The position numbers were made by a program, and so were the translations under genes. This document shows positions 1 to 61,735 of a stretch of DNA of 64,000 nt, one piece after another. This stretch comes from a virus (lineage: Duplodnaviria; Caudoviricetes): positions 1-64,000 of the IMG/VR virus record IMGVR_UViG_2870609773_000002; one strand, 5' to 3'. Numbering within the stretch: the stretch's first letter is position 1; every line of letters begins with the position of its first letter. The notes under the pieces were generated by a model, which made no database searches, was not told where the DNA came from, and saw only the letters and a list, made by a program, of their open reading frames with translations.

Positions 1-1260
1 TCAGCGGCCATCGGGTTGCCGGAACTGCCGATCAATGGCTTCGCGGACCCGGTCGTGAGACGAAGGCAGCATATGGGCGTAGACACGCAGAGTAAGCGCT
101 GGATCGGCGTGACCCAAGTACTCGGACAGGTCCTTGATCGTCACACCACCTGCCAGGGTCACGCTGGCGAAGTAGTGACGGAGCTGGTGTGTGCCTTGCT
201 GCCGCGTGGTGAGGTAGCGTCGCCGGCCTTGTGTGTCCTTGACCGGCTCTGGAATGACTCCGGCCGCGACGAGCGCGGGTTTCCAGACGGTCTCGTCGTA
301 GTTGCGATGTCGAACGTGTAAATCGTCGGTCGCCCACCGGAACAGCAGGTCGTGAGTACGCGGCTTCCCAGCGGGTTTCTCCCAGGGCAGGGTGTATGGC
401 CGTGGCGTGTGGGCCTCGATGTGCGCACGCAGATGCTCTGCAACCCATCGAGACATGGGAATCGTGCGCTCCTTGTCCCTTTTCGGCAGGGCGAAAACGA
501 AGTCACTCCTCAGCTTCTTGACCTGGCGCCGCACATGAATGGTCATCTCCTCGAAATCCACGTCCTCGAGGGCGAGGCCGAACCACTCGCCTGCCCGCAT
601 GCCGCATCCAGCCCCGAGAACGGGCATGGCTCGCAGGTGCGCCGGATGGGCGGCGATGATCGCGAGAACCACCGAGTCCGCCCACGGGACCACCTTCTTG
701 TACGCGTGCGCAGGTGCCTTGACGATGTCGGCCTTTGCTGGGTTCTTCTTAATCTTCTCGTCGGCAACGGCGAGATCGAGGATGCCCTGCAGAACGAGGA
801 GTGCCGTAATCGGTGTTGAGGCCTCGTACCGCTCGCCGAGTTCAGCCAGGAACTCCTGGACTTCGGACGGCTTGATCGACCCAACCTTGCGTTTCCCGAA
901 CTTCGGGCCGATGTGAAGCCGGTACATCGACTCGTATCGGATGAGAGAGGCCGGGTCGATGCCGGTACGGGAGGATAGCCATCGCTGCCCGTAGGCGTCG
1001 AACTGGGCATTGCCAGCGGCGGGGTCGATGTACTCGCCTCGCTCCAGGTCCTCTTCCATCTTCCGGGCGTACTTCCTGGCGGCGTCCTTGACGCGCCGCG
1101 TGGCGGTCTTCTCCCTACCGTCCGGGCCGATCCACACGCCCTGCCACCGGTTCGCGTCCGGGTTGCCGCCGTTGTCGGGGTGCTTCGCGGTCTTCTTCCG
1201 GACGGGCTTGCCGTCAGGTCCTTTGACCGTCGTGAACCACAGGTCTCTGACACGGGCCAT
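1..1260 (-). CDS. int: Tyrosine integrase
   Basis: Catalytic motifs GMRAGE (R), HQLRHYF (HxxR), LGHADPALTLRVY (H...Y); N-terminal arm-binding region; 419 aa. Confidence 0.95.
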   Translation of the reverse strand: MARVRDLWFTTVKGPDGKPVRKKTAKHPDNGGNPDANRWQGVWIGPDGREKTATRRVKDAARKYARKMEEDLERGEYIDPAAGNAQFDAYGQRWLSSRTGIDPASLIRYESMYRLHIGPKFGKRKVGSIKPSEVQEFLAELGERYEASTPITALLVLQGILDLAVADEKIKKNPAKADIVKAPAHAYKKVVPWADSVVLAIIAAHPAHLRAMPVLGAGCGMRAGEWFGLALEDVDFEEMTIHVRRQVKKLRSDFVFALPKRDKERTIPMSRWVAEHLRAHIEAHTPRPYTLPWEKPAGKPRTHDLLFRWATDDLHVRHRNYDETVWKPALVAAGVIPEPVKDTQGRRRYLTTRQQGTHQLRHYFASVTLAGGVTIKDLSEYLGHADPALTLRVYAHMLPSSHDRVREAIDRQFRQPDGR

Positions 1261-6591: not shown

Positions 6592-7320
6592 ATGCCCCTC
6601 ATGTACGTGCCAGGCATCGCCCGCGTCCACTACGACAGCATCCAGAATGGCCGCCACACCCAGGCCGACTACGTGGCCGTGCTCGACGGCGCGTGGGCGC
6701 TGGCCGTGGCGGTGTGCGACGGCGCTGGCGACGACTGCGACGCGGCCGACGCCGCCCAGATCAGCGCACAGATCGCCGCGGCGGTCACCGGCTCCACCAA
6801 CAGCGGCGTCCAGGGCCTGCACGCTGCTCGCACCTACCTGCAGCAGCGCAACGAGGACGCTCCGCCCGGACAGGAGGGCATCACCACGGCGGTCGTAGCC
6901 GCGATCACCCCGGGCTTCCTCGACATGGCGTGGGTCGGCGACTCACCCGCCTGGGCGGCGCGCCTGGACGGCAAGGTCGTCCCCCTGACCGTCCCGTCCT
7001 GCCATCCCTGCGGCACCCCGTGCAACGTCGAGGAGAAGCACGAGGCGGAAGGCCGCTGGCCGCACCGCCTGCTCACCGACACCGGCGACTACGCCCGCCT
7101 CATCATCGCGACGGACGGTCTGACCGCGCACCTGCCCCTCGCAGGCCGGGCCGACCACATGAACGCGATGCTCGACGACCTGGCGCGCCTCGCCTCGCCT
7201 GACCTGTCCGGCGAATATGTCGCGGCATCGCTGCTCGACATGGCCAGGCAGAGCCGCGACCCCGACAACACGACAGTCGCCGTGATCGACCTCCTGACGC
7301 ACGAGGGCGAGCCAGCGTGA
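6592..7320 (+). CDS. PP2C/PPM-family protein phosphatase
   Basis: Motifs in order: QAD, AVCDGAG, WVGDSPA, LIIATDGL, DNTTVAV. Confidence 0.85.
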   Translation: MPLMYVPGIARVHYDSIQNGRHTQADYVAVLDGAWALAVAVCDGAGDDCDAADAAQISAQIAAAVTGSTNSGVQGLHAARTYLQQRNEDAPPGQEGITTAVVAAITPGFLDMAWVGDSPAWAARLDGKVVPLTVPSCHPCGTPCNVEEKHEAEGRWPHRLLTDTGDYARLIIATDGLTAHLPLAGRADHMNAMLDDLARLASPDLSGEYVAASLLDMARQSRDPDNTTVAVIDLLTHEGEPA

Positions 7321-18456: not shown

Positions 18457-19458
18457 TCACGCGGTGGGATCGGAAGCGATCACCAGAACACCACGACGCC
18501 GGACGGCCGACCGGCCCCCGGGCAAGTTCACGGCCTTCTGCCCGTGCCAGTGCGTCACCAACCGGTCCAGGGCCCGCACGTGAGTGGCCGACAGCACGCC
18601 GGACGGGGAGCCCGCGGCGATGGCCGCTCGCCGCAGTACCCGTCGTCTTACCGCGTCGGGAAGCTTCTCAAGCTCGGCCACGGCCAGCGTCACCGACTCG
18701 CCGAGGTCGCCTCGTACAGAGTGCTGGTAAGCCGAGTCGGCCCACTCGTCGAGCGCGTCGGCGTCTTCCCGCGCGAGCGCGGCGGTTCGAGCCAGCGCCT
18801 CGATCACCCCCGGCCCCAGCTCTTGCTCCAGGAGTGGAAGGATCTTGTGGCGCACTCGGACGCGTGTGTAGCGCGGGTCGGCGTTGTGTGGGTCGTCCCA
18901 CAGGTCGAGGTTCTGCGCCCGGCAGGCGGCCACGGTGGTAGCCCTGGGAAGGTGCAGGAGGGGGCGCCGGTAGCGTCCCGTCGTGGCCGCCATGCCGGAC
19001 AGGGACCGGGGTCCGCTGCCCCTGGCCAGCCCGAGAAGCACCGTTTCGGCCTGGTCGTCGCGGGTGTGTCCGAGCAGCACGGCCTCTGCGCCATGCCGGT
19101 CGGCTGCCTCGCTGAGCGCGGCATATCGGGCCTCTCGTGCTGCCGCCTCTGGGCCGCCCTCCCCGCCCACGGTAACGGTGAGGACTTCCGAGGGGGTGAG
19201 GCCGAGGTCCGTGCCCAGGGCTGCCACGGTTTCCGCCCTCTGGCGCGAGCCCTCTTGGAGTTGGTGATCCACGGTCAGCAGGCCGGCGCGCAAGCGGAGG
19301 CGGGGGGCGACGAAGGCCAGTGCTGCGGCCAGGGCCAGCGAGTCGGCCCCGCCGCTGCATGCGGTGAGAATGAGCGCGTCCTTCTGGACGTCGGCCAGGG
19401 CTTCGCGGACGGCTCGGCGGACGTCGGCTACGGCTGGATGCGGACCCACATGTGTCAT
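18457..19458 (-). CDS. tilS: tRNA(Ile)-lysidine synthetase
   Basis: [65 protein letters not shown]; 333 aa, no frameshift. Confidence 0.92.
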
Positions 19459-19479
19459 TGTCGTGGATCCGGGTGTCGA

Positions 19480-20013
19480 TCAGTGTGCCTGCGGCTGCTG
19501 GGCGTCGCTCTGCTCCAGGTCGAGCTCGTCCAGGTATGCCTCCATGGCGTCGTTGAGGACGGCCATGCCACCCATCTGCTCCTGGTGGCACGCGGCGACG
19601 AGCCGCGCTCGCGTGTTCCGCTTGAGCCGCACTACGGAGCCTGGTGCAACCGGACGGTCGCGGGGTGTGCCAGGCGGCGGCGGGTTGGGGTCACGGGGCA
19701 CTTTGAGATTGGCCTTGTCGATGGGCTCGGGGAACACGGCCGGGATGGGCGGCTGCAGTGCGTCGCAGTAGGTGTTGATCGCCAGTTCCCACGCTTCCTG
19801 CGGGCCCATGCCCATGTCGTCGAGGGCGGTGGTGAGGCGGTCGTCGATGTCGCTGTACAGGTAGATCGTGGTGGGGACGAGGTTTGTCCAGCGCACTGCG
19901 CGGAGGCGACGTGGCCCACCTCGGCGGGTCGATTGCGGTTCCGCTGGCGGCTGTTGTCCGGCTGCGGAGTCCTCGGATGGGTTGAGCTGAGGTGGCTTCG
20001 GGGCGCGCGGCAT
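19480..20013 (-). CDS. Hypothetical protein, possibly two ribbon-helix-helix-like units
   Basis: TTIYLYSDIDDRL...AWELAINTY and VVRLKRNTRARL...VLNDAMEAYL; co-oriented with tilS. Confidence 0.55.
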   Translation of the reverse strand: MPRAPKPPQLNPSEDSAAGQQPPAEPQSTRRGGPRRLRAVRWTNLVPTTIYLYSDIDDRLTTALDDMGMGPQEAWELAINTYCDALQPPIPAVFPEPIDKANLKVPRDPNPPPPGTPRDRPVAPGSVVRLKRNTRARLVAACHQEQMGGMAVLNDAMEAYLDELDLEQSDAQQPQAH

Positions 20014-20252
20014 ATGGGGCTTCCTGTGTGGTGCGTGGCGTGGTTCAACGGTACGGCGTTTCTGCCGCCGTGTCGTCTTCGACGTGTACTGTAGCGGCCC
20101 GATTACTTTACGTCATTATTGGTTCCCTGATTGTTTATATCGATTCCCTGTATGTACTATCGAAGTGATCGCAGAGCTTCACGATCAACCCTTCGCCACC
20201 TGGTGGCATGCCGCTACCAGCACCAACACCACAACCCGGAAGGGCTCACCGC

Positions 20253-27158: not shown

Positions 27159-28132
27159 GCATCACGATTCGCGAGGACGAGCGCGACGAGTACGACCCGA
27201 GCCACGCCGTACCGACCAGCGCGGGCCGCTACTACTGCGACCCCATGCTGGGCCCGGACGACCCGCACCGGATGAAGATCTCCGTCACCAACGCCATCGA
27301 CCAGCACATGATCGAGGCGCTGGCCCCGGCCGCCGCGCGGGACACCGCGATCTGGCTGATGGACAACCTCCCCGACGCGATCCGCGCGGCCGGCGACCCA
27401 GACGACATGGAAGCGTTCATCAAGCTGGCCAAGGCGCAGTACCGGGTCCAGTGGGACAAGAAGGCCGACCTCGGAAGCCGTGTCCATAACATCGGCGAAG
27501 CGATCAACCTCGGCAAGGCGTACATCCCCGACGAGGAAGCCGAACCGTTCGTCGAGTCCTACCGACAGTTCCTGGCCGACTTCGGGGTGGACATCCGCCG
27601 CGACATCATGACGGCGGAGTGCACGGTGCTCAACCGCACGATCCCGTACGGCGGGACGAGCGACATCTGGGTCCGCTTGCAATTCCCCGGCCCGACGTCG
27701 CCGATCATGCCGAAGTTCAAGCCTCGCGCGGTTCCGGCCGCCCCGCTTCCGACGCCGTCCGGGCTGTGGCTCGTGGACATCAAGACGAGCCTCACCAAGC
27801 CGGCCAGCGCCGTCTACGAGGACCACGTGATGCAGCTCGCCGCTCTGCGGCACGCGGAAGTCGCGCTCATCTGCCCGCCCGAGTGCAGGTACGGCGAGAG
27901 CGACAACCACGACGCCAGCCACGAGTTCCCCGTCCCGGAGTTCGTCGGCACGGCGATTCTCAACCTCCGCACGAACGGCTACGGGTTCGTGCCGCTCCCG
28001 GCCGACCAGGACGCGTTCACCGCGTTCTGCGGGCTGCTCCCGCTCGCGCACTACGTCCACGGGCTCGAAATGCGCGGCTTCAAGCCCATCCAGCCCCCGA
28101 GCAAGACCACCACCAGGAAGGACGCCGCCTGA
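27155..28132 (+). CDS. PD-(D/E)XK exonuclease (RecE/Cas4-like)
   Basis: GSRVH, E, YGGTSD, LVDIKT, QLAAL. Confidence 0.8.
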   Translation: MSITIREDERDEYDPSHAVPTSAGRYYCDPMLGPDDPHRMKISVTNAIDQHMIEALAPAAARDTAIWLMDNLPDAIRAAGDPDDMEAFIKLAKAQYRVQWDKKADLGSRVHNIGEAINLGKAYIPDEEAEPFVESYRQFLADFGVDIRRDIMTAECTVLNRTIPYGGTSDIWVRLQFPGPTSPIMPKFKPRAVPAAPLPTPSGLWLVDIKTSLTKPASAVYEDHVMQLAALRHAEVALICPPECRYGESDNHDASHEFPVPEFVGTAILNLRTNGYGFVPLPADQDAFTAFCGLLPLAHYVHGLEMRGFKPIQPPSKTTTRKDAA

Positions 28133-29811
28133 TGCCCATCGACCCCTCCGTACTGCAGCGCCGCCACTGGCAGGACGGCCGGATCCGTCTCGGCATCAAG
28201 AAGATGAGCCGGAACGGCAAGGAGTACCCCAGCAAGATCGACACCTTCCGGTTCACGTCGCCGTCCGAGGACATGATCCGAGGCGTCGCCGAGAAGTACG
28301 GCGGCGAGGTCAAACCGTGGAAGTCGCCGCAGGGCCCGCAGTTCGAGGTCATCACCAACGCGCAGCGCATCCCCGTCATCGTCCCGCCCAACGGCCTGAG
28401 CCAGAACATGGAGCTCTGGGACGGCAAGCTCTGCATCCGTCGCTGCACCGGCATCGCGATGCAGGCCCCGTTCGTCGGCCCGTGCCTGTGTGGGGCGGAC
28501 GTCGAGCTCAAGAAGCGGCCGTGCAAGCCGCACACCCGACTCGGTGTCTTTCTAAAGGAAGTGCCCAGCTTGGGCCTGTGGCGGCTCGACAGCAAGGGCG
28601 GCAACGCCGCGGCCGAGCTGCCCAACGCCGCCGAGTTCCTGGCCCACGCGGGGACGTACGTGGACGCCTGGCTGTACGTGGCCGAACGCACCGGCTCGTT
28701 CCTCGACCCGAAGGACAACGTGGTCAAGGCCACCACGTACATGGTGCCCGGCCTGACGATCGAAGGCATCGGCTTCGACGAGCTGATGTCGGGCGAAGTC
28801 GCCCGCCGCGCCGAGCTGGGCCGCGGCGGTGAGAGCCAGCGGGCGATCGAGGCCGCGCCCGCGACCGACTACCTCGCGATGATCGAGGCGGCCCCAGACC
28901 GAGACGCGGTCGTGGCCATCTGGAGGACGTCCAAGCTCGACCCCGCTTGGCAAGGGCGGGGCGAGGAAGTGGAGGCGGCGGCCAAGGCACGCGTTGCGAA
29001 GTTCCCCCCGGAGCAGGGCAAGGGCGCACCGCAGGGCCAGTCCGCCCCGGAGGGCACGCAGCCCAACGAGCACACGCACGAGGACGCCCCTTCGGACACC
29101 CCGCCGCCGGGCGACCCCGAAGCGGATCGGATCCGGCAGCACATCATGACCGCGTGGTCCGGCACGACGAGCCAGCTCCACACCGCGTTCCGCGACCGCA
29201 CCAGCACCACCATGAAGGCCGCGACCCTGCAGCAGCTCCAAGAGTTCGCCGACCAGCTCGGCCAGCCCGCCGCAGGCGCCATCGCGGACGAACCCCGCAA
29301 GGCGTCCGAGCGCGCCGAAGCGCTCCTCGAGGCCGCCCGCGCGCAGAACACCGCGGCGGCGGCCGACGACGACATCGTGGACGGGGAGGTCGTCGAGGAC
29401 GAGGAGCAGCCGAAGCCCACCGCCAAGGCGCTGCGCGACCTCGGAGTGTGGTTCGGCGAGGCCGGCGTCACCATCCACACCGGCAAGGGTTCGGCCGCGA
29501 AGAACGACGAGGCGCGGTTCGCCTGGATTGTCGAGCACCTGGGTGTCGATGTGACCTCGACGAAGGACCTCAGCGCCGAGCGGGTGGACACCGGGGTCAA
29601 GCTGCTCATGCAGCAGGCCGCCGCCCGCCGGAAGGACCTGCAGCAGCGCATCGTCAACGTCTGGTCCGACCTGGACGGCAACAACCAGCAGCTCTCCGCC
29701 GCGTTCGAGCAGCACATGGAGAAGCCGGTCGGCGAGGCCACCAACGCCGACCTCGCCGCGTTCCTGCAGAAGCTCAGCAACAGCGAGGTCACCCCTGGCG
29801 GTGGTCAGTGA
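28132..29811 (+). CDS. phiC31 gp3-like (RDF-like) protein with long C-terminal extension
   Basis: GRIRLG...PSKIDTFRFTS, CKPHTRL, GLWRLDSKGGNAAAEL; coupled to exonuclease. Confidence 0.65.
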   Translation: MPIDPSVLQRRHWQDGRIRLGIKKMSRNGKEYPSKIDTFRFTSPSEDMIRGVAEKYGGEVKPWKSPQGPQFEVITNAQRIPVIVPPNGLSQNMELWDGKLCIRRCTGIAMQAPFVGPCLCGADVELKKRPCKPHTRLGVFLKEVPSLGLWRLDSKGGNAAAELPNAAEFLAHAGTYVDAWLYVAERTGSFLDPKDNVVKATTYMVPGLTIEGIGFDELMSGEVARRAELGRGGESQRAIEAAPATDYLAMIEAAPDRDAVVAIWRTSKLDPAWQGRGEEVEAAAKARVAKFPPEQGKGAPQGQSAPEGTQPNEHTHEDAPSDTPPPGDPEADRIRQHIMTAWSGTTSQLHTAFRDRTSTTMKAATLQQLQEFADQLGQPAAGAIADEPRKASERAEALLEAARAQNTAAAADDDIVDGEVVEDEEQPKPTAKALRDLGVWFGEAGVTIHTGKGSAAKNDEARFAWIVEHLGVDVTSTKDLSAERVDTGVKLLMQQAAARRKDLQQRIVNVWSDLDGNNQQLSAAFEQHMEKPVGEATNADLAAFLQKLSNSEVTPGGGQ

Positions 29812-38231: not shown

Positions 38232-38765
38232 GTGTTCTCTCGCGCTGACGTGAAGCCGTGCAAGGGCAGCAAGGACAAGATGCCGTGCGGGCGGTTCGTC
38301 CGCTGGACTCGCACCGTGGCCGGCGTCCCCTACGCGGTTGACCTGGCCCCGCACGAGGACGGCAACACCGCCGTCTGGAGGGACGTCCACGGGATCCTCC
38401 GGTCCCGCCGCATCACCGAGGACCTGCCGCTCGTTCCGCCGGAGAAGCGGATGATGCCGCACGCTGCGACCTGTCCCGGCAAACCGCGGGTCCAGACCCC
38501 GCCACCGCCACCGCGGCCGCCACGCAGGCCCGCACCACCACCGGCCGGACGGCTGTACGACCTGCTCGGCGTCACCAGCACCGCGCATCCGGACGACATC
38601 AGGAAGGCGTACCGCAGGCTGGCCCGCCAGCTCCACCCCGACGTCAACCCCGACCCGAAGGTGGCGGCGCGATTCCAGGAGATCGGGGAGGCATACCACG
38701 TCCTGTCCGATCCCGGCCGGCGGCGGACGTACGACCTGACGGGTCGGCCACCACGAGCCGGATGA
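38232..38765 (+). CDS. J-domain (DnaJ) protein with N-terminal Cys/His domain and Pro linker
   Basis: LYDLLGV...[18 protein letters not shown]...[19 protein letters not shown]. Confidence 0.88.
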
Positions 38766-56190: not shown

Positions 56191-57765
56191 ATGCCGCTTC
56201 CCGAGCGTAATCAGGAGTGGCCGCCGCCAGCGATCCGACAGGAGATGCGGCTCTACGACACTCACGGCGCCTGGTACGCCGGCGACCCGGACAAGCTGGC
56301 GCAGGTGTACGGCGGCAACCGGGCAGCGCCGATGGTGGGGATGGACCCGAAGGGCTGGGACCGGCCGATCAGCCGCATGGGCGGATACCTCGGGCGTGCA
56401 GTCCGCTACTTCTGGGGAACGCCCACACCGGCCGCGCAGTCACGAGCGACGAAGCTTCACATCCCGCTCGCCGCCGATATCGCCGCCACCAGCGCCGACC
56501 TGCTGTTCAGCGAGCCACCGACACTCAAGCTGAAGGGCAAGAAGGGGCAGCAGCGGCTCGACAGCGTGCTGCACGAGGCCGGCGTCTACGGCAGCCTCCT
56601 GGAGGCCGCAGAGCTGGCCGCCGCATACGGGGGCGTCTACCTGCGGGTCGGCTGGGACACGACGATGGCTGACCACCCGGTCGTGGACGCGTTGCCGCCG
56701 GACGCCGCCGTGCCCGAGTTCCACAACGGCCGGCTGAAGGCGGTGACGTTCTGGCGGGTCGTCTACGAGGACGACCGGTCGGGCGAGGTGTGGCGGCACC
56801 TGGAGAAGCACGAGAAGGGCCGCGTCTTCCATGGCTTGTACCTGGGCGATGAGGATCACCTGGGCAGGCAGATGCCGTTGGAGGATCACCCGGCGACCGC
56901 CGAGTTCGCCGAGCTGGTGGACGAGGATGGCGGGTTCGACAGCGGGTTCGATCGTGGCCTGCTGGTTGAGTACATCCCGAACATGCGCCCGCACAGGATG
57001 ATCCGGGGTACGGCGGTCGGCCGCAGTGACTATGCGGGCGTTGAGCCGTTGCTGGACGCGTTGGATGAGACGTGGACGTCTTGGATGCGGGACCTGCGGC
57101 TCGGTAAGGCGAGGATCATCGTCCCGGAGATCTACCTGACGACGGCCGGGCGCGGCCAGGCAGCGTCGTGGGATCCGGATCGGGAGATCTACAGTCCGTT
57201 GGGCGGCATGCTGCCGTCGCCGCAGAACCCCGGCAGCATGATCACCCTGAGCCAGTTCAAGATCCGGGTGCAAGAGCATGCGGAGACGTCGAAGCACCTG
57301 GTGGAGCAGATCGTTCGCGGTGCCGGGTATGCGCTGCAGTCGTTCGCTGAGGGTGGCAATGGCCAGGCCAAGACGGCGACCGAGATCCACATGGAGAAGC
57401 ACCGGTCGTACTCGACGCGCGGCCGGAAAATCGGCTACTGGACACCGCGACTCGCGTGGCTGTCGGAGGCGATGCTGGCCGTCGATCACGCGGTGTTCGG
57501 GACGAAGGTCGTGGCTGAGCGGGCGACCGTGGAATGGCCGGACGGCGTCATGCCCGACCCCGAGAGCATGGGCCGCACGCTGGACATGCTGAACCGGGCG
57601 CAAGCCGTCAGCCTGGACACGAAGATCCGTTGGGTTCACCCCGACTGGGACGACGTCCAGGTCCAAGCTGAGAAGGAGCGGCTGCGCGACGAGCTCGGGC
57701 TGAACGTGCCGGACCCGGCAGCCCTGGGCGAGACGTGGATCCCTGACGCGAGCGGCGACGACTGA
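56191..57765 (+). CDS. Portal protein (SPP1 gp6-like)
   Basis: 524 aa; IAATSADLLFSEPP, GRSDY, TATE; position before head genes. Confidence 0.9.
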   Translation: MPLPERNQEWPPPAIRQEMRLYDTHGAWYAGDPDKLAQVYGGNRAAPMVGMDPKGWDRPISRMGGYLGRAVRYFWGTPTPAAQSRATKLHIPLAADIAATSADLLFSEPPTLKLKGKKGQQRLDSVLHEAGVYGSLLEAAELAAAYGGVYLRVGWDTTMADHPVVDALPPDAAVPEFHNGRLKAVTFWRVVYEDDRSGEVWRHLEKHEKGRVFHGLYLGDEDHLGRQMPLEDHPATAEFAELVDEDGGFDSGFDRGLLVEYIPNMRPHRMIRGTAVGRSDYAGVEPLLDALDETWTSWMRDLRLGKARIIVPEIYLTTAGRGQAASWDPDREIYSPLGGMLPSPQNPGSMITLSQFKIRVQEHAETSKHLVEQIVRGAGYALQSFAEGGNGQAKTATEIHMEKHRSYSTRGRKIGYWTPRLAWLSEAMLAVDHAVFGTKVVAERATVEWPDGVMPDPESMGRTLDMLNRAQAVSLDTKIRWVHPDWDDVQVQAEKERLRDELGLNVPDPAALGETWIPDASGDD

Positions 57766-60796: not shown

Positions 60797-61735
60797 ATGG
60801 CTAACACTTTCCTGACCCCGAGCATTATCGCCAAGGCGGCGCTGGCCACGCTGTACGAGACCTGCGTCATGGCCCAGCTTGTCCACCGCGATTATGAGCA
60901 GGAGTTCGTCTCCCGCGTGGGCGACACGATCTCCGTGCGGAAGCCCGCCGTGTTCCAGGCGAACGAGTTCGACCGGGCGACCGGCATCCAGATCCAGAAC
61001 GCGTCCGAGGGCAGCGTGCCGATCACGCTGAACCACTTCGCCGACGTGAGCTTCAGCGTCACCGCCGAGGAGCTGACGCTGGAGATCGAGGACTTCGGCA
61101 CGCAGCTCCTCAACCCCGCGATGGAGGCGATCTCGCAGAAGATCGACAGGGACATTCTGAGCCTCAGGAACGACATCGTGCAGCGCGTGGGCGTCCCGGG
61201 CACGACTCCCACGGGCCTCACCGGCGAGGTGATCCACCCGTACGACGACCCGAAGACGGCGATCGACGCCAGGCGCGTGCTCAACCAGCGGAACGTCCCG
61301 GCGGCGGATAGGCATCTGGTGATCGGCCCGGAGATCGAGGCGCTCTGGCTGTCGGATCCGCTGTTCCACCAGGCCGACGTCAGGGGCGACACGGACGGTC
61401 TCCGCGAGGCTTCGCTGGGCAGGCGAGTCTTCGGTCACGATGCCTACCAGACCCAGAACATCGACGCGCCCACGGGCACGCCGACGACTGGCCAGCCGAA
61501 CACCGAGATCGGAGTGGCTTTCCATAGGACCGCTTTCGCGTTGGTGACTAGGCCCTTGGTCCTTCCGCAGGGCGCGGCCAACGCCGCCGTGGAGAGCTAC
61601 AAGGGCTTCGGCGTCCGCGTGGTGATGGACTACGACATCTCGAAGAAGCAGGACATCGTGTCGGTGGACTGCCTCTACGGCGTCAAGACTCTCGACGCCA
61701 ACAGGGCTGTGCTGATCCACGGGGTCGCGGCGTGA
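60797..61735 (+). CDS. Major capsid protein (P22 coat-like)
   Basis: MANTFLTPSII, GDTISVRKP, VDCLYGVK; 312 aa. Confidence 0.9.
   Translation: MANTFLTPSIIAKAALATLYETCVMAQLVHRDYEQEFVSRVGDTISVRKPAVFQANEFDRATGIQIQNASEGSVPITLNHFADVSFSVTAEELTLEIEDFGTQLLNPAMEAISQKIDRDILSLRNDIVQRVGVPGTTPTGLTGEVIHPYDDPKTAIDARRVLNQRNVPAADRHLVIGPEIEALWLSDPLFHQADVRGDTDGLREASLGRRVFGHDAYQTQNIDAPTGTPTTGQPNTEIGVAFHRTAFALVTRPLVLPQGAANAAVESYKGFGVRVVMDYDISKKQDIVSVDCLYGVKTLDANRAVLIHGVAA

Follow-up and report, generated by a model that had tools for sequence, protein, structure and literature searches.

Introduction

TilS, an essential enzyme encoded by a single-copy gene, determines for one tRNA which codon is read and which amino acid is carried. 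To our knowledge, viral versions of it have so far been recorded in jumbo phages and giant viruses alone, and none of them has been explained. TilS homologues whose function was stated to be unknown are carried by the jumbo Pseudomonas phages vB_PaeM_MIJ3 and PA5oct (PMC6892783), and giant viruses, as well as the jumbo Ralstonia phage RsoM2USA, have been said to encode a lysidine synthase (PMC8504454, PMC13191261). The substrate of the enzyme, tRNA-Ile2(CAU), is far commoner in phages than TilS itself (PMC10688831). Here we analyse a tilS gene carried by a temperate phage of Nonomuraea, a genus of soil actinomycetes. The window, that is the whole stretch of 64,000 nucleotides (nt) analysed (IMG/VR record IMGVR_UViG_2870609773_000002, positions 1 to 64,000), corresponds to bases 138-64137 of a 96,733-bp contig, C2, with 67.9% GC; the second contig of the same assembly (G000), C1, is the chromosome (12.78 Mb, 71.5% GC). 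G024 denotes a genome that an identical protein assigns to N. gerenzanensis, L-numbers denote extracted loci of relatives, and coordinates without a prefix are those of the window.

Phage-borne TilS is rare and has already been reported; the present case stands out in that a temperate, mid-sized phage without tRNA genes carries a copy derived from its host genus. The gene is an intact tilS of host-genus origin, inserted into the phage genome and conserved there under purifying selection. We consider it probable that it encodes an accessory but bona fide lysidine synthetase, carried as cargo by a group of ~97-kb temperate phages and read through from the promoter of an upstream gene for a ribbon-helix-helix (RHH)-like protein.

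The phage gene encodes an intact TilS of the short form

18457..19458, minus strand: phage tilS, 333 amino acids (aa), short actinobacterial form, a PP-loop ATP-pyrophosphatase with a C-terminal substrate-binding domain, without the second C-terminal domain (CTD2)

An earlier note on this DNA had described an intact TilS of 333 aa with the canonical motifs on the minus strand, and Pfam, NCBIfam and structure alignments agree. The PP-loop part matches PF01171 (ATP_bind_3) at 5e-38, the substrate-binding domain (CTD1) matches PF09179 over residues 258-325 (2.5e-11, 44.1 bits versus a cutoff of 21), and the NCBIfam model TIGR02432 (lysidine_TilS_N) gives 148.6 bits versus a cutoff of 93.6. When the protein is aligned to the Geobacillus kaustophilus TilS structure 3A2K (residues 25-321), and also to 1NI5 and 1WY5, its SGGxDS motif (CSGGADS, residues 34-40), its DDQAET (DDQxET) motif and its RPLL and DPxN motifs stand in register with those of all three. 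The full-length E. coli-type model that includes CTD2, NF007942, scores 110 bits, below its cutoff of 606; as the TilS matches across the genus and the family are of similar length (~330 aa), this marks the short actinobacterial subtype and not a defect of the phage copy. Among the 130 columns that are invariant in 50 chromosomal TilS proteins, 128 are unchanged in both phage copies, those of C2 and G024, and 129 in the window's copy. At columns conserved to at least 90%, 10 of 77 are altered in the phage copies, nine of the ten at position 219 or beyond.

A copy of host-genus origin, neither recent nor chimeric

The host has a tilS of its own at C1:12748090-12749085, encoding 333 aa that are 81% identical to the phage protein, and so the phage gene is not its sole copy. 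The chromosomal gene lies in the order Zincin_2-tilS-Pribosyltran(hpt)-FtsH, and neither hpt nor ftsH is found beside the phage tilS, as the earlier note had seen. At this locus the similarity between C2 and the chromosome covers the tilS open reading frame (ORF) only, and its 78.7% nt identity is far from the near-identity of a passively captured host gene. The same arrangement recurs in N. gerenzanensis, N. rubra and further assemblies, which excludes an artefact of assembly; the phage tilS is thus neither a recent capture nor a chimera.

Each of 110 Nonomuraea species has one chromosomal tilS, and a second full-length copy occurs only in G000 and G024, the phage TilS of the latter being 97% identical to the window's. 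The cluster of phage TilS at 90% identity holds four sequences (the window's own, that of N. gerenzanensis, that of N. rubra and one found on seven contigs), all its members share one gene order, and in two of its assemblies the phage is identical to C2 across the compared genes. Beyond this cluster, 50,697 phage records of INPHARED yielded 14 weak TilS matches, all below 60% identity and one of them covering at least 80% of the query; no same TilS was found among IMG/VR viral contigs with a single-protein query, and no family in PHROGs matches the protein.

The phage TilS is 79-82% identical in aa sequence to the chromosomal TilS of Nonomuraea and at most 73% identical to that of other genera of the family. 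The comparison with host tilS that the earlier note had proposed groups the phage copies with Nonomuraea tilS: in a maximum-likelihood tree of 52 sequences the copies of C2 and G024 form a pair (support 100) whose stem is 0.19 substitutions per site long, and the pair is placed several nodes within the Nonomuraea radiation, sister to neither present host. The GC content at third codon positions (GC3) is 0.81 in the phage tilS versus 0.89 in the chromosomal copies, matching the lower GC of the phage, and by this measure the gene has drifted (ameliorated) towards phage values.

Selection on the phage gene

Between the tilS genes of C2 and G024, the ratio of non-synonymous to synonymous substitution rates (dN/dS) is 0.26 (P of neutrality 3e-4; the two differ at 18 synonymous and 12 non-synonymous sites). 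Between those of C2 and the N. rubra phage it is 0.25 (P of neutrality 4e-3). The range of chromosomal tilS pairs, 0.10-0.31, includes both values; flanking backbone genes range over 0.09-0.68. Three phages whose nt sequences differ by 3-13% have all retained the gene at this position, with a substitution pattern of purifying selection. From the low dN/dS and the 128 unchanged invariant residues we conclude that the product of tilS is functional and of importance to the phage.

These values bear on the possibility that tilS is a functionless passenger, picked up by illegitimate recombination, whose decay is yet to come. No plausible benefit of the gene can be named, close relatives do without it, and other host-like cargo is aboard (a serine hydroxymethyltransferase, a PhyH dioxygenase, a PP2C phosphatase and a DnaJ-domain protein), all of which would suit such a passenger. 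Yet a gene that is ~21% in nt sequence away from any host copy has kept its frame open and 128 of 130 invariant residues, its GC3 has been ameliorated, and its dN/dS of 0.25 across three phages 3-13% apart is significantly below neutrality, so that we hold a mere passenger to be quite unlikely.

A cargo slot behind a conserved backbone gene

19480..20013, minus strand: RHH-like protein, 177 aa, with a Pro/Arg-rich N-terminal tail; conserved backbone gene of the phage group
19459..19479, minus strand: spacer of 21 nt between the RHH-like gene and tilS, in which no terminator-like or promoter-like site was found
18452..19515, minus strand: stretch unlike the tilS-less locus L063 by alignment, comprising the last ~12 RHH codons, the spacer and tilS
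20014..20207, no strand assigned: divergent intergenic region, with a sigma-70-like site at 20143-20115 on the minus strand
17865..18446, plus strand: convergent neighbour with a weak match to the CxxCxxCC zinc/iron-chelating family (E 6.5e-4, 20.8 bits, under the Pfam cutoff of 23 bits)

The insertion is delimited by comparison with L063, in which the intergenic region 20014..20207 is kept at ~76% nt identity, and homology ends at 19515 and restarts at 18452. Four related prophages (L063, L067, L068 and L069) have the RHH-like gene at the corresponding position and in the same direction, but lack tilS there. In L063, L068 and L069 it is directly followed by a convergent gene of 190-195 aa in the position of the CxxCxxCC-like gene, and in L067 the slot behind it holds a different gene of 182 aa (L067:4127-4675, plus strand) that has no Pfam match and belongs to no known family. 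As the RHH-like gene is present without tilS in these relatives, tilS is a gene-sized cargo insertion and the RHH-like gene is part of the phage backbone, and the slot downstream of the latter appears to act as a hot spot for cargo. The earlier note had taken the pair for a two-gene unit and proposed a survey of phage genomes for it; tilS does occupy the same slot in several Nonomuraea phages, but the pairing is not obligate and the notion of a unit has to be abandoned.

The description of the upstream gene as small and RHH-like holds in part: it ends 21 nt from the ATG of tilS and an RHH-like fold is plausible, but a product of 177 aa can hardly be called small. In some assemblies the annotated length is 138 aa, but the N-terminus is conserved across homologues, which share 54-75% identity and form twenty clusters from Nonomuraea, Streptosporangium, Microbispora and Thermocatellispora. 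Their alignment displays two strand-helix-helix repeats joined by a Pro-rich linker and preceded by a conserved basic N-terminal tail; the protein has no Pfam or PHROG match. In the AlphaFold model (mean predicted local distance difference test score 63) two helix pairs are present and no strands are assigned. The best Foldseek matches of the model in the PDB are chains of the F-plasmid relaxosome, with a probability of 0.99 but a non-significant E of 0.14; we interpret these chains as TraY, which is a tandem RHH protein.

The site at 20143-20115 is the sole sigma-70-like site in the scanned stretch; none lies between the RHH-like gene and tilS, and the whole of the scanned RHH-tilS stretch yielded no terminator-like site. 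This site is the likely promoter of an RHH-tilS transcript, and co-transcription of tilS with the RHH-like gene would be the simplest reading of the arrangement. On its other side tilS faces the CxxCxxCC-like ORF (10 nt off, convergent), followed by an HU-like and then a Mom-like gene, and the opposite flank of the pair is a plus-strand early operon.

Substitutions in the C-terminal part

Several observations weigh against an ordinary lysidine synthetase taken from Nonomuraea and serving translation, and we gather them in this section and the next. No obvious Shine-Dalgarno sequence precedes either candidate start of tilS. An approximately unbiased (AU) test of the phage pair placed outside the genus gave p = 0.089, so that a position just outside Nonomuraea is not formally rejected, and because of this we speak of a donor from a Nonomuraea-like lineage.

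A further point is the distribution of the 21 residues that are common to the phage copies and present in at most one of 44 chromosomal Nonomuraea copies. Seventeen of them fall within the 118 positions of residues 216-333, versus four within the 215 N-terminal positions (Fisher p = 1.4e-5), whereas the chromosomal copies are equally conserved in their N- and C-terminal parts. The motif (C/F)ALSDI, conserved in all sampled genera, has become SVRGDL in the phage copies, and four arginines have been gained (L249R, L295R, L316R and Y322R). A compensated frameshift was considered as the source of the cluster at residues 246-252 and was rejected, as the DNA carries several in-frame point changes. 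The C-terminal dN is 0.162 between phage and hosts versus 0.068 from host to host (2.4-fold), and the C-terminal dN/dS (omega) is 0.11 between the phage copies and 0.22 between phage and host. The chromosomal TilS of genome G059 (L011) also has many unique residues, together with an insertion at the boundary of the linker and the CTD, and the region can thus vary in hosts too.

Changes of this kind could mean altered recognition of the substrate. The residue pattern fits an unsampled donor or a retuning of tRNA recognition after capture, and we judge the retuning to be distinctly improbable. A farther-reaching proposal is that of a neofunctionalised TilS, whose remodelled, more basic C-terminal domain would redirect it to tRNA-Met(CAU), elongator or initiator, or to another RNA. 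The host's translation would thereby be reprogrammed or shut down, or superinfecting phages would be excluded. The packing of phage-specific residues into 216-333 of a protein whose host versions are evenly conserved, the loss of an invariant motif, the charge added by the four arginines, and a C-terminal dN that is raised towards the hosts and constrained again between the phages (omega 0.11) all speak for it. Set against them are the phage-host omega, which at 0.22 is still low in the C-terminal part, the similar C-terminal surplus of unique residues in the chromosomal L011, and the donor lineage, which is unsampled and may have carried these residues already; on this evidence we regard neofunctionalisation as unlikely. 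One course that it could have taken, in which the tRNA-binding domain was remodelled, then frozen by purifying selection, and acts on a substrate in place of, or besides, tRNA-Ile2, seems to us quite improbable as well. By way of example, tRNA-Met(CAU) might then be turned into a lysidine-bearing tRNA, as a phage-run switch of host translation or an exclusion function under the RHH regulator.

Codon use, tRNA repair and the modification cluster

The remaining points against an accessory lysidine synthetase concern its use to the phage. ATA codons were counted in gene calls of high confidence, both on C2 and on 3 Mb of the chromosome; a relaxed gene call was left out of the count, since spurious antisense ORFs inflate the figure. 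Their frequency is 0.44 per 1000 codons in phage genes versus 0.41 in host genes, which is no phage excess, and the terminase, portal and capsid genes have zero ATA codons. When orthologous codons were compared with a sister phage, 4 of 10 ATA codons recurred there versus 12 of 35 ATT codons, so that ATA is conserved no more than ATT. One 'ATA codon' in a GntR ORF is probably located upstream of the true start. A search with aragorn found neither a tRNA-Ile2 gene nor any other tRNA gene on C2. With no ATA excess, no conserved ATA and no tRNA-Ile2 gene, the logic of translational supply yields no clear benefit; the earlier note had expected AUA supply to be a weak explanation and had proposed this very count, and we reject codon supply for want of a signal in either ATA frequency or orthologous ATA positions.

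Phage tRNAs and tRNA-repair enzymes counter anticodon nucleases. By analogy with these, and in line with a suggestion of the earlier note, the phage TilS might restore lysidine or the function of tRNA-Ile2 after damage or depletion by a tRNA-targeting defence, or might replace a host TilS that has been inhibited. The phage lacks the company that such a role would lead one to look for: tRNA genes are absent from C2, and the phage ORFs that were scanned yielded neither an RNA ligase nor a polynucleotide kinase/phosphatase nor a CCA-adding enzyme. Moreover, a cleaved tRNA is beyond repair by TilS, and a literature search gave no defence system that acts on lysidine, tRNA-Ile2 or TilS. We therefore find counter-defence very unlikely.

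A role outside tRNA was suggested by the neighbourhood of the gene.

11039-17414: DNA-modification-type cluster with two PAPS-reductase-like PP-loop proteins (phrog_424), a Mom-like protein (phrog_1384) and a C5 methylase, and also a phrog_15826 protein, previously read as TGT/DpdA-like, and a DUF3560-methyltransferase fusion

The Mom-like gene is only two genes away from tilS, with the PAPS-reductase-like genes, the phrog_15826 gene and two DNA methylase genes nearby, and TilS could have been repurposed as part of this pathway, as the earlier note had proposed; alternatively it could moonlight as a regulator of host ftsH, since in Bacillus subtilis a TilS-HprT complex is reported to activate ftsH (cited in PMC6892783). 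However, tilS runs opposite to the modification cluster with two genes between them, and among relatives either one can be present where the other is missing: in the N. rubra prophage tilS has no Mom-like or TGT-like neighbours within the 5 kb examined on that side, and L063 and L069 have the Mom-like/TGT-like cluster without tilS. The PAPS-reductase-like genes, too, are found in relatives that lack tilS. We therefore reject a link between tilS and the cluster on co-occurrence. No hpt partner adjoins the phage tilS, and a protein that is still 81% identical to the housekeeping enzyme can scarcely have taken on a new nucleic-acid substrate. Taken together, a non-tRNA role of either sort is extremely unlikely.

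The element is a temperate phage recovered outside the chromosome

1..1260, minus strand: tyrosine integrase, Pfam Phage_integrase with SAM-like and central domains, adjoining attP at the contig junction
51365..52651, plus strand: terminase large subunit (phrog_2, 3e-45)
56191..57765, plus strand: portal protein (phrog_533, 2.5e-99)
60797..61735, plus strand: major head protein (phrog_283, 1e-72)

C2 encodes a large terminase, a portal, minor and major head proteins and two tyrosine recombinases, and also DNA methylases and an amidase endolysin. Its last 57 bases (C2 96677-96733) and its first ~30-35 bases together form an imperfect copy, ~90 bp long, of the 3' end of the acyl-CoA dehydrogenase gene at C1:7753929-7755218, a chromosomal site that is unoccupied in G000. 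As the two ends jointly rebuild this 3' end, C2 is a circle opened inside an attP-like site, and the junction and the 3' end of the gene are likely an attP/attB pair. Close relatives of C2 sit integrated in other genomes; that of G024 is collinear with C2 (84-97% nt identity), is ~97.8 kb long and is integrated at a site whose match in G000 is empty. An integrated copy of C2 within its own genome was sought and rejected, as C2 and C1 match in short gene-sized pieces only. Its packaging and head genes, its integrase next to attP and the integration of its relatives identify the element as a temperate tailed phage, which was recovered excised or episomal in the G000 assembly. The term prophage used by the earlier note is apt in that the phage is temperate and its relatives are integrated, but the element itself is a separate, non-integrated circular contig in this assembly.

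The G024 prophage lies at C1:~3512778-3610549 of its genome (L037, L032, L033, L038-L041), a locus that is distinct from the candidate attB and is syntenic to C1:8554940-8555231 of G000; its left end and integrase region have diverged from C2, which suggests a swap of the integration module. The second tyrosine recombinase of C2 (46016-47029, plus strand) is located mid-genome, distant from the integrase next to attP. As for other cargo, a full serine hydroxymethyltransferase (PF00464, 4.7e-123) is encoded at L034:15246-16691, minus strand (C2 79383-80828), adjoined by a PhyH-type dioxygenase at L034:17118-18116, minus strand (C2 81255-82253); both are host-like metabolic genes, possibly with a connection to the modification of nucleotides or DNA. 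Unusual cargo within the window includes a PP2C-type phosphatase (6592-7320, plus strand), a DnaJ-domain protein (38232-38765, plus strand) and a protein of 730 aa (27619-29811, plus strand) with a Gp3-like recombination-directionality-factor domain.

Discussion

Based on these data we propose that an ancestor of the ~97-kb temperate phage group acquired a copy of tilS from a Nonomuraea-like host, the ORF alone and nothing around it, and that the gene landed in a cargo slot directly downstream of a conserved gene for a putative tandem-RHH regulator. Having no promoter of its own, it would most likely be expressed by read-through from the promoter of the RHH-like gene. The product, presumably active as a catalyst, would adenylate C34 of the host tRNA-Ile2(CAU) and then attach lysine, and would thus add a capacity to form lysidine that is independent of the host tilS-hpt-ftsH operon, presumably in the lysogen or at an early time after induction or infection. 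Our best guess for the benefit is that tRNA-Ile2 would be kept fully modified when the host TilS is limiting, a weak guess because the phage has no special demand for AUA.

Should the phage TilS prove to be merely redundant, it would be a modest addition to the auxiliary genes of phages. Compared with the viral TilS described so far the present case is a cleaner one, as it combines a cultivable host genus, a mid-sized temperate phage without tRNA genes and a gene of traceable origin. The natural availability of tilS-plus and tilS-minus sister phages, together with purifying selection on the gene, makes for a tractable system in which to ask what a phage gains from a tRNA-modifying enzyme where codon supply is no answer, and the C2 protein could show whether the specificity of TilS is retunable via its C-terminal domain.

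Among known relatives the chromosomal TilS of Nonomuraea is the closest, being a short two-domain form of the same length (333 aa), with the same catalytic motifs and 79-82% aa identity; it differs in its hpt/ftsH context, whereas the phage copy stands behind an RHH-like gene, has a lower GC3 and 21 lineage-specific residues, and has lost the ALSDI motif. The RHH-like protein itself would resemble TraY-type tandem RHH proteins in its two putative strand-helix-helix modules per chain, a pattern drawn from the alignment, and departs from them in its long disordered N-terminal tail and Pro-rich linker, with no sequence-family match and a fold match at E 0.14.

The TilS of jumbo phages and giant viruses is, like that of C2, a virus-encoded homologue of lysidine synthetase. 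The jumbo phages MIJ3, PA5oct and RsoM2USA are lytic and larger than 280 kb, whereas C2 is temperate, 97 kb long and devoid of tRNA genes. MIJ3 carries 12 tRNA genes and a TilS reported to be only distantly related to that of its host, in contrast to the host-genus-derived TilS of C2, and the RsoM2USA match covers only 28% of the C2 protein at 32% identity. Finally, the tRNA-Ile2(CAU) genes of phages and prophages (ileZ-type) target the decoding of AUA via lysidine at position 34 (k2C34) (PMC10688831), as the phage TilS presumably would. Phages of the ileZ type bring the substrate tRNA, depend on the TilS of the host and use more AUA, whereas C2 brings the enzyme and uses AUA at the level of its host.

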